From NCBI RefSeq assembly GCF_003019035.1, contig NZ_CP027447.1: a stretch of DNA of 64,000 nt; one strand, 5' to 3'. The notes beneath the pieces are model-generated. The model ran no database searches and was not told the DNA's origin. It saw only the letters and a program-made list of their open reading frames with translations. This DNA comes from Escherichia coli (GTDB lineage: Bacteria; Pseudomonadota; Gammaproteobacteria; Enterobacterales; Enterobacteriaceae). This document shows, one piece after another, positions 6,282 to 9,580 of this stretch; position 1 is the first letter of the stretch; each line of letters starts with the position of its first letter. The translations under genes were made by a program, and so were the position numbers.

Positions 6282-9137
6282 TTACAGCGCGGCGATAACT
6301 GCCTGCTGTTCAATCAGCTTCGCTTTCGCTTCTGCATAACCTTCCAGCTTCTCACGCTCTTTCGCGATAACCGCTTCCGGTGCGCGGGCGACAAAGCCTT
6401 CATTTGCCAGCTTGTTCTCGATGCGGCTGATTTCACCTTCGATCTTCGCCACTTCTTTCGCCAGGCGCGCCAGCTCATCTTCTTTGTTGATGAGGCCAGC
6501 CATCGGGATCAGCAGCTCTGCACCGTCGATGATCTTCGTAACGGAAACCGGACCTTTATCATCGGCAGGCAGCACGGTGATACTTTCCAGACGCGCCAGC
6601 GTTTGCAGGAAGCCACGGTTTTCATTTACGCGACGTTCTGCATCCGCGCTGCAACCACGCAGCAGCAGCTCCAGCGGTTTGCCCGGCGCGATGTTCATTT
6701 CTGCACGGATGTTACGTACCGCAACGATCGCCTGCTTCAGCCACTCGGTGTCGGCCAGTGCGGCTTCATCGACCTGAGACGCATCGTACTGCGGGAACGG
6801 TTGCAGCATGATGGTGTCAGCAGTGATACCGCAAAGTACTTTCACACGCTGCCAGATGGTTTCGGTGATGAACGGAATGATCGGATGCGCGAGGCGCAGC
6901 AAACCTTCCAGTACAGTCACCAGCGTATGGCGAGTACCGCGCAGTTCGGCTTCTGTTCCACCGTTCATTACCGGCTTGGTCAGCTCGAGATACCAGTCAC
7001 AGAACTGGTTCCAGGTGAACTCATACAGAATGCCTGCGGCGATATCGAAGCGGAAGCTGTCCAGCGCTTCGCGGTACGCTTTGATGGTCTGGTTGAACTC
7101 CGCCAGAATCCAGCGGTCCGCCAGCGACAGCGTCATTTCGCCGCCGTTGAAGCCGCAATCCTGACCTTCTGTGTTCATCAGCACAAAGCGGCTGGCGTTC
7201 CACAGCTTGTTACAGAAGTTACGGTAGCCTTCCAGACGCTTCATATCCCAGTTGATGTCACGACCGGTAGAAGCCAGCGCCGCCAGGGTGAAGCGCAGCG
7301 CGTCAGTGCCGTGCGGCTCAATGCCGTTCGGGAACTGTTTCTCGGTGCGCTTACGGATTTTGTCCGCCAGCTGCGGCTGCATCATATTGCCGGTACGTTT
7401 TTCCAGCAGTTCTGGCAGTGAAATACCGTCAACCATATCCAGCGGGTCGATAACGTTACCCTTGGATTTGGACATCTTCTGGCCTTCGTCGTCACGAATC
7501 AGACCGGTCATGTAAACAGTGTGGAACGGCACCTGCGGTTTGCCATTTTCATCTTTGATGAAGTGCATGGTCATCATGATCATGCGGGCAATCCAGAAGA
7601 AGATGATGTCGAAACCAGATACCATCACGCTGGTTGGGTGGAACTGACGCAGGGCGTCGGTATTTTCCGGCCAGCCAAGGGTAGAGAAGGTCCACAGCGC
7701 AGAAGAGAACCAGGTGTCGAGAACGTCTTCGTCCTGACGCAGGACAACATCAGCACCGAGGTTATTTTCTTTACGCACTTCGTCTTCGTTGCGGCCAACA
7801 TAAACGTTACCCGCTTCGTCATACCATGCCGGGATACGGTGACCCCACCATAGCTGACGAGAGATACACCAGTCCTGAATATCGCGCATCCAGGAGAAGT
7901 ACATGTTTTCGTACTGCTTCGGTACGAACTGAATGTCGCCGTTCTCAACCGCTTCAACTGCCGGTTTCGCCAGTACATCGGCACGCACGTACCACTGGTC
8001 GGTCAGCATCGGTTCGATAACCACGCCGCCACGGTCGCCGTAAGGAACGGTCAAGTCGTGCGGTTTAATTTCTTCCAGCAGGCCGAGTGCGTCAATCGCA
8101 GCAACGACGGCTTTACGTGCAGCAAAACGCTCGAGTTTCTGGAACTCTGCCGGGATCTCGCTGGAATAAACGTCAGATTCGTTACCTTTGGTATCGAATA
8201 CCTGGGCGCTTTCACGGATATCGCCGTCAAAGGTCAGGATGTTGATCATCGGCAGGGCGTGACGTTTACCGACTTCATAGTCGTTAAAGTCGTGCGCTGG
8301 GGTGATCTTCACGCAGCCGGTGCCTTTTTCCATGTCGGCGTGTTCGTCGCCAACGATCGGAATACGACGGTTAACCAGCGGCAGAATGACATATTTGCCA
8401 ATCAGATCTTTATAACGCGGATCTTCCGGGTTAACGGCCACGCCAGTATCGCCCAGCAGGGTTTCCGGACGGGTAGTCGCAACCACCAGATAATCTTTAC
8501 CGTCTGCGGTTTTCGCGCCGTCAGCCAGCGGATAGCGGATGTGCCACATCGAACCTTTCGATTCGCGGTTTTCCACTTCCAGGTCGGAGATAGCGGTGCG
8601 CAGTTTCGGGTCCCAGTTTACCAGGCGTTTGCCACGGTAAATCAGGTCTTCTTTATACAGACGAACGAAAACTTCTTTCACTGCATTGGACAGGCCTTCG
8701 TCCATCGTGAAGCGTTCACGCTCCCAGTCGACGGAGTTGCCGAGACGACGCATCTGACGGGTAATGGTGCCGCCGGATTCCGCTTTCCATTCCCAGATTT
8801 TGTCGATGAAAGCTTCGCGGCCGTAGTCGTGACGGGTTTTACCTTCTTCTGCGGCAATCTTGCGCTCAACGACCATCTGGGTAGCGATCCCGGCGTGGTC
8901 AGTACCGACCTGCCACAGGGTGTTTTTGCCCTGCATGCGCTGATAGCGGATCATAGTATCCATGATGGTTTGCTGGAAGGCGTGACCCATATGCAAACTG
9001 CCGGTGACGTTCGGCGGCGGGATCATGATGCAGAAACTTTCCTGGCTTTCATCGCCATTAGGCTTAAAGTAGCCCTGCTTTTCCCAGTGCTCGTAAAGCG
9101 GCTGTTCGATATCTTGTGGGTTATATGTCTTTTCCAT
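6282..9137 (-). CDS. valS: Valyl-tRNA synthetase
   Basis: 951-aa class I aaRS with HMGH (HIGH-type) and KMSKS motifs (..[10 protein letters not shown].., ..KMSKSKGNV..). Confidence 0.97.
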
Positions 9138-9580
9138 TATTTCCAGGTTGCCGTATTCAGGTTGAAACCAGCCACGCGGTAGGCTTTATAGCGTTCGCGC
9201 GCCAGTTGTTTCAGAGAATCTTCATAAGGAACGAAGTCTACCACTTCTGTGAAAGCGGTGGCAAAATCTGCAAAGCTTGTTCGCAGACTAATCAATATAT
9301 CGCGCGGGCTGCTGCTGCGTTTTTGCGGCCAGGCGATCTCCACCGGCGCACCGCCGCGCGGTCCTTCTCCCGCTAAATTATGCGGGACAAAGCTTTCTGC
9401 CGGACGCGCCCACAGGGCTTCATCCAGCCGGTAAGCCTGCTTTTCATCTTCACAGGCGATGAGCACGCGCTTACCGCTGCGCCAACGTTCTGCGGCAATT
9501 TCACACACCAGTTGCTCAACGGCGCTTAAGCCATCGACGGTGGTGTCATTGTCCAGAAGGTAGAACGTTGCGTTTTTCAT
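9137..9580 (-). CDS. holC: DNA polymerase III chi subunit
   Basis: 147-aa [12 protein letters not shown]...; its TAA stop overlaps the valS ATG by one base (TAATG), indicating translational coupling. The track ORF extends 13 codons further upstream. Confidence 0.9.

Follow-up and report, generated by a model that had tools for sequence, protein, structure and literature searches.

A one-base holC/valS overlap in Escherichia coli and a valS promoter embedded in holC

The holC/valS junction and the start of valS

The window, i.e. the whole stretch of 64,000 nucleotides of Escherichia coli DNA that was analysed, carries pepA, holC and valS on its minus strand (Table 1). HolC matches the NCBIfam equivalog NF004345 with 338.7 bits, residues 1-147 lying on positions 1-147 of the profile, and it also aligns over residues 1-147 to the chi subunit of PDB 1EM8/3SXU. 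ValS matches the equivalog TIGR00422 with 1303.8 bits in an alignment that begins at residue 1. These full-length matches confirm the identities that the initial annotation had given to the two genes. The holC reading frame runs from an ATG at 9580 to a TAA at 9139-9137, the valS ATG occupies 9137-9135, and base 9137 is common to both. Direct reading of the minus strand around 9150-9125 (...ACC TGG AAA TAA TGG AAA AGA...) gives the same TAATG at 9139..9135, and the one-base overlap is therefore as first described.

This overlap is already known. In the annotation of strain K-12 (NC_000913.3), valS (b4258) extends over 4480982..4483837 and holC (b4259) over 4483837..4484280, which is the same locus in another Escherichia strain with the same overlap, at 4483837, and no difference at the junction; strain LR-28 has the same one-base holC/valS overlap as well. 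Across valS-holC-pepA the window and K-12 are about 97.6-98.2% identical; the repeat element in the pepA-holC spacer of the window differs from that of K-12, and the two sequences are identical from the -35 element described below through the valS AUG. We found two co-directional, genuine protein-coding genes with one base common to stop and start, which is the geometry of the -1 nt TAATG/TGATG overlaps of co-directional prokaryotic genes. This spacing is the second most enriched one after -4 nt (PMC12548453; see also PMC6728339 on -1 nt overlaps). The holC/valS overlap is thus an ordinary, annotated member of a common class and has little weight as a discovery. The pentamer itself, present in 226 copies in the window for about 191 expected, is uninformative alone; what goes beyond chance is the meeting of two genuine, conserved genes at this particular copy. 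Our search of the literature for holC and valS together returned only irrelevant or list-type mentions. A paper on the genetic code of Providencia names both genes and says nothing on their junction.

The overlap had also been taken to fix the valS start. The start codon is correct, but it is the structure of the reading frame and the conservation of the N-terminus that fix it. The ATG at 9137 is the first ATG, GTG or TTG after an in-frame stop located 17 codons upstream. The N-terminus of ValS is collinear with the profile models, its residue 2 aligning to residue 4 of the Thermus thermophilus ValRS (1GAX), and relatives that have the overlap and relatives that do not both retain an N-terminal Met-Glu/Asp-Lys/Thr-x-Tyr motif, which reads MEKTY in most loci. 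The next in-frame methionine, residue 38, cannot be the start because it stands just ahead of the class I signature region. For these reasons the assignment of the valS start is secure, though not secured by the overlap.

Table 1. Features of the holC-valS locus, in positions of the window
Feature	Position	Strand	Basis or remark
TAATG junction	9135..9139	-	sequence and ORF table; same overlap in the K-12 annotation
holC (DNA polymerase III chi subunit), 147 aa + stop	9137..9580	-	NF004345
valS (valine-tRNA ligase), 951 aa + stop	6282..9137	-	TIGR00422
pepA (leucyl aminopeptidase), upstream gene	9714..11225	-	NF002072, 1093 bits
-35 hexamer TTGCCA, holC codons 106-108	9259..9264	-	promoter scan; near-invariant in 78 Enterobacterales loci, including synonymous sites
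Extended -10 TGgTAGACT, holC codons 113-116	9235..9243	-	promoter scan; TG 9243-9242, hexamer 9240-9235
valS transcription start site	9227	-	projected from NC_000913.3 position 4483927
90-nt valS 5' leader (last 30 holC codons)	9138..9227	-	unstructured, without a real Shine-Dalgarno sequence
valS intrinsic terminator hairpin	6237..6262	-	terminator scan

A promoter and a leader for valS within holC

In K-12, SMRT-Cappable-seq (Yan 2018, PMC6131387) placed a capped-RNA start site inside holC, at position 4483927 of the reverse strand, with 256 reads beginning there in M9 and 403 in rich medium. In both growth conditions the transcript from this site fully covers only b4258, and it ends at 4480931, listed as the known b4258 terminator, a position which projects to about 6231 in the window. 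The start site precedes the valS AUG by 90 nt. A consensus scan of the window found a TTGCCA hexamer followed by an 18-nt spacer and by TAGACT with an upstream TG; the mapped start stands 8 nt past the last base of this -10 element, so that the hexamers of a sigma-70 promoter are properly spaced upstream of a mapped primary start. Most valS mRNA would then start at this promoter, embedded in holC codons 106-116.

The embedded promoter leaves a trace in the codon usage of holC. In a codon alignment of 78 non-Escherichia loci, scored in 13-codon windows, codons 104-116 reach a synonymous codon identity of 0.95, the highest of any window (gene-wide median 0.62). None of 20000 permutations reached the observed value, and five of the seven fully invariant codons of holC fall within this window. 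The TG and the TAGACT are each invariant in 78/78 loci, while the base between them, 9241, varies (A in 62, G in 16), and this invariance takes in third codon positions and a rare ATA/GTA codon at position 114. Conservation of these codons exceeds what coding constraint accounts for. Like other promoters embedded in an upstream coding sequence, this one has a mapped primary start giving a transcript of the downstream essential gene only; what sets it apart from them is that the dual use shows up in 78 species as constraint on synonymous sites. The start site is in the literature; we found no publication of a synonymous-constraint analysis of the holC-embedded promoter. The last third of holC doubles as promoter and leader of valS, and expression of the essential valS gene could change if a deletion or recoding of holC extends into codons 104-147.

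With the same data the pepA operon of RegulonDB was extended to pepA-holC, and valS and holC are each found in one single, different transcriptional context (PMC6131387): valS only as a monocistronic transcript and holC only together with pepA. Since SMRT-Cappable-seq under-samples long transcripts, and a pepA-holC-valS transcript would be about 5 kb, the missing transcription unit over both genes is no proof against their co-transcription. Indeed, there is no room for a terminator at the junction, and therefore some read-through from holC into valS must occur. From mRNA levels we estimate that pepA-holC-valS read-through could make up about 22-38% of valS mRNA.

The start region of valS has little to attract a ribosome by base pairing. 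In the 20 nt before its AUG the best duplex with the anti-Shine-Dalgarno sequence reaches -3.3 kcal/mol, no better than 30% of random 20-mers of the window, compared with -7.8 kcal/mol for pepA and -8.3 kcal/mol for lptG; the published aSD value of valS is -1.68 (PMC5318159). The region from -20 to +21 is 63% A/U. The predicted fold of the leader together with the first 60 nt of valS has z = -0.03 relative to shuffled sequence, with the start open in the centroid structure, and the in vivo DMS Gini(-20:40) of valS is 0.244, which is low among the genes in the section of the published table considered here and below the 0.491 of holC (PMC5318159). In an Rfam scan neither the junction nor the valS leader matched a family. 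The simplest reading is that ribosomes probably load directly onto this start region, which is rich in A/U, unstructured and nearly devoid of a Shine-Dalgarno match. Two short reading frames of the leader were considered and set aside. A 4-codon, nearly leaderless frame whose AUG (9225-9223) stands at the 5' end of the valS transcript is Escherichia-specific, most species having TAC-GAA there, and the start codon of a frame opening at GTG codon 136 is not conserved in the junction alignment.

Expression of valS and the question of coupling to holC

The initial annotation read the overlap as implying translational coupling of valS to holC, and named ribosome profiling as a check. Published K-12 densities contradict coupling as the main route, and the valS-only transcript argues in the same direction. 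In the data of Burkhardt 2017 (PMC5318159), valS has a ribosome density of 691.45, an mRNA level of 583.3 and a translation efficiency (TE) of 1.185; the corresponding values for holC are 41.96, 221.4 and 0.189. The ratios of valS to holC are thus 16.5-fold for ribosome density, 6.3-fold for TE and 2.6-fold for mRNA. The holC mRNA amounts to 38% of that of valS, and with a Gini of 0.391 its coverage is uneven (PMC5318159). These values transfer directly to the window because the sequence is identical from the -35 element to the AUG. If elongation rates on the two genes are similar, as the comparison assumes, a 16.5-fold ribosome density means that ribosomes ending holC could account for about 6% of valS initiations at most. 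Moreover, since the valS-only transcript begins inside holC, much valS mRNA is without a translatable holC. A stop/start overlap alone is no evidence of translational coupling, and the published profiling and start-site data show valS expressed largely on its own. In the literature we found no experiment that directly measured coupling at the holC/valS junction, and the supplementary data of Kim 2012, of Ettwiller 2016 and of the kasugamycin translatome list neither valS nor holC. We consider it very probable that the overlap comes from tight gene packing and that valS is mostly expressed from its own promoter, with ribosomes loading directly and little dependence on holC.

The main competing explanation is termination-reinitiation, in which ribosomes ending holC at the UAA would restart at the overlapping AUG and so tie ValRS synthesis to that of chi. 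Three observations speak for it. The core clade described below shows no variation in the junction sequence, valS is without a real Shine-Dalgarno sequence, and lack of such a sequence is sometimes linked with coupled downstream genes. The third is the spacing, as -1 nt overlaps belong to the enriched classes that have been linked with coupling (Brown and Wade 2025, PMC12548453; Huber 2019, PMC6728339). However, a downstream gene cannot get more ribosomes than finish the upstream gene, and here both the ribosome density and the TE of valS exceed those of holC by the factors given above. The primary transcript that begins inside holC, the retention of the same valS start in relatives that have no overlap, and the fact that chi and ValRS are not complex partners and are needed in very different amounts also stand against it. 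As the main route, reinitiation is already contradicted quantitatively, and we regard it as highly improbable. On the minority of pepA-holC-valS read-through transcripts, a ribosome ending holC could still restart at the valS AUG, a route that would supply at most about 6% of ValRS synthesis; valS expression as a whole would not depend mainly on holC translation.

Coupling could also act through RNA unfolding, if the valS start were hidden in a structure that opens only when holC is translated. This is a recognised model, and read-through transcripts must exist, since no terminator fits at the junction. Yet neither the predicted fold nor the DMS Gini, which is lower than that of holC, reveals an inhibitory structure over the start site, and holC is untranslatable from the monocistronic transcript, which is without the holC start; we hold this model to be very unlikely too. 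A short upstream frame in phase with holC within the 90-nt leader, for example one starting at GTG codon 136 (9175-9173), might instead deliver ribosomes to the valS AUG. Short upstream ORFs that deliver ribosomes in this way have been suggested to act generally, and codon 136 is GTG, ATG or CTG in the core-clade species of the junction alignment. However, nothing resembling a Shine-Dalgarno sequence precedes this codon by eye, and its potential as a start is not conserved, because several non-core genera have GTT or GTC there and others an aligned Ser-Val; of the explanations weighed here this one appears the least probable. There is, finally, only a slender chance that the invariant TAATG context is a working part of valS initiation in core Enterobacteriaceae and not passive compaction. 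A short leader ORF, or holC on read-through mRNA, seeding the Shine-Dalgarno-poor start would be an example. If this were true, TAATG-dependent initiation would tie the supply of ValRS to chi-frame translation, and holC deletion alleles that remove codons 104-116 would change valS expression and confound holC phenotypes.

The products of overlapping pairs shown to be coupled are often subunits of one complex, with similar translation rates (PMC10666635). Unlike the downstream genes of such pairs, valS has a function unrelated to that of holC, a promoter to itself and a translation 16.5 times higher. Another -1 nt overlap in the window, the TGATG of lptF/lptG (12590-12594, plus strand), lies 3.4 kb away. 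In contrast to valS, lptG has a strong Shine-Dalgarno sequence, AAGGAG (-8.3 vs -3.3 kcal/mol), and LptF and LptG, unlike chi and ValRS, are subunits of one transporter; for these two reasons lptF/lptG is a more typical candidate for coupling than holC/valS.

Distribution and origin of the overlap

The initial annotation called the arrangement conserved and proposed an alignment of orthologous loci, which we carried out. The gene order and the close spacing of holC and valS are deeply conserved; the overlap itself is confined to, and invariant in, a core clade of Enterobacteriaceae, with spacers elsewhere. Of 5426 complete E. coli genomes, 4242 match the 41-nt junction at 100% identity and 1179 more with one mismatch, so that 5421 are identical or one off. 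A HolC-seeded scan with one genome per species, in which a subset of 10 HolC sequences served as seed, gave 80 loci, all from Enterobacterales, and valS lies directly downstream of holC in every one of them. TAATG is found inside the invariant string ACCTGGAAATAATGGA in 38/38 species loci with HolC at least 88% identical, which form the core clade; the genera with TAATG include Escherichia, Salmonella, Citrobacter, Klebsiella, Enterobacter, Kosakonia, Leclercia, Kluyvera, Pluralibacter and Trabulsiella. The remaining 42 Enterobacterales loci have a holC-valS spacer of 2-18 nt, most commonly in the form TAGcagac(a)ATG, and their genera include Atlantibacter, Cedecea, Shimwellia, Siccibacter, Buttiauxella, Erwinia, Pantoea, Pectobacterium, Rouxiella and Yersinia (in our numbering, loci L001-L040 carry TAATG and L041-L082 the spacers). 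In Yersinia, ValS has a 14-residue N-terminal extension, and its ATG lies 16 nt past the holC stop.

In the junction alignment, the core clade is without some 18-21 nt that are present in the other Enterobacterales, and this absent stretch comprises the final codons of holC with their TAG stop and the greater part of the spacer. By parsimony, the overlap would be a derived compaction of the sequence and not an ancient arrangement. It may have arisen in the common ancestor of the Escherichia-Salmonella-Citrobacter-Klebsiella-Enterobacter group, when a deletion of about 20 nt would have taken out the last holC codons, the old TAG stop and 5-6 nt of spacer. After such a deletion the holC frame would continue into TGG AAA TAA, overlapping the unaltered valS ATG. 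The points added by the present work are this probable clade-specific deletion and the synonymously constrained promoter embedded in holC; both are consistent with start-site data in the literature and with the usual view of gene packing.

Five more distant gammaproteobacterial loci, with HolC 38-51% identical, have spacers of 7, 15, 16, 20 and 31 nt. The lptG-lptF / pepA-holC-valS neighbourhood is kept in four of them, whose contigs reach far enough to include the adjacent genes; L085, the fifth, lies on a contig of 2.3 kb, and its downstream gene is presumably valS. The promoter element is recognisable in two distant loci, as TGgTAGACT in L083 and as TTGCGA-18-TGaTAGAAT in L088, and the promoter is therefore older than the overlap.

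The holC start and the pepA-holC spacer

The open reading frame of holC, which encodes the chi subunit of DNA polymerase III, is lengthened to 160 aa in the window strain, where an in-frame ATG is found at 9619 and the frame is free of stop codons down to 9580. A cluster of 160-aa proteins (P0001) exists in public data, with 653 members. The 147-aa start at 9580 agrees with the profile model and with the structure PDB 1EM8, and the 160-aa form therefore looks like a gene-calling artefact.

The spacer between pepA and holC differs from strain to strain. We observed that it is 133 nt long in the window, versus 160 nt in K-12, and that it carries a palindrome, ccctctccctaagggagaggg (about 9686-9666), which is unlike the REP-type palindromes present in the K-12 spacer and which may resemble a Box C repeat. 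When a 901-nt query was compared with E. coli genomes, a match was obtained in 5425 of them, and in 4513 a single alignment covered 80% of the query or more. In about 900 genomes the query was split into two pieces spanning 1025-1121 nt, or the alignment stopped short of pepA; the two-piece matches indicate an extra 120-220 nt in the genomes concerned.

Features noted in the window
Feature	Position	Strand	Remark
lptF stop/lptG start overlap (TGATG)	12590-12594	plus	second -1 nt overlap in the window
holC codons 135 and 143, in the valS leader	9176-9178 and 9152-9154	minus	78-species identity
Ysr276 match	10473-10667	plus	Rfam; antisense to the pepA coding sequence
Upstream in-frame holC extension	9581-9619	minus	open reading frame
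pepA-holC intergenic spacer	9581-9713 (window); 8282-8440 (locus L001)		strain-variable
tRNA-Leu(CAA)	21640-21724
Tyrosine integrase	21914-23161		after tRNA-Leu(CAA)

Overlapping junctions and conserved codons

Unlike valS, lptG has a strong Shine-Dalgarno sequence, AAGGAG, 8 nt upstream. Within the valS leader, holC codons 135 (CGC) and 143 (ACG) are identical in 78 of 78 species, though degenerate. Short metagenomic proteins (protein clusters P0017 and P0093) possess a chi domain (PF04364) together with an N-terminal tRNA-synthetase domain (PF00133); these apparent HolC-ValS fusions probably come from frameshift or assembly errors where the two genes overlap. The Yersinia locus (L081, about 2935-3000) encodes a 14-residue N-terminal extension of ValS, MENTPSNIDKTEPS, ahead of the conserved LDKTY. 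A one-base overlap was also seen between pepA and holC, in a distant relative (L090, at 3501).

With Ysr276 (Yersinia sRNA 276, antisense type), the Rfam match reaches 182 bits, where the gathering score is 100; conservation of pepA may be all that lies behind it.

Divergence of the region and a candidate island

Across the 25 kb of positions 1-25000, identity to the best-matching complete E. coli genome is only about 97%. Identity to K-12 is 91% in the yjgL-argI part (1552-4307), and E. coli strains match valS-holC-pepA at 97.6-98.7%. A divergent Escherichia lineage may be the source of the window.

The tRNA-Leu(CAA) gene is taken to be leuX. Next after the tyrosine integrase come a DUF6387 protein, a Replicase-family protein, a MobA/VirD2 relaxase and a PF14350 'Beta protein', and G+C is 32-39% across the tRNA-Leu/integrase/relaxase stretch (within the region 21640-46000). 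The stretch with the integrase and the relaxase looks like an integrative mobilisable island; beyond it lie sialic-acid genes (SASA esterase, NanM epimerase) and also a fimbrial usher.
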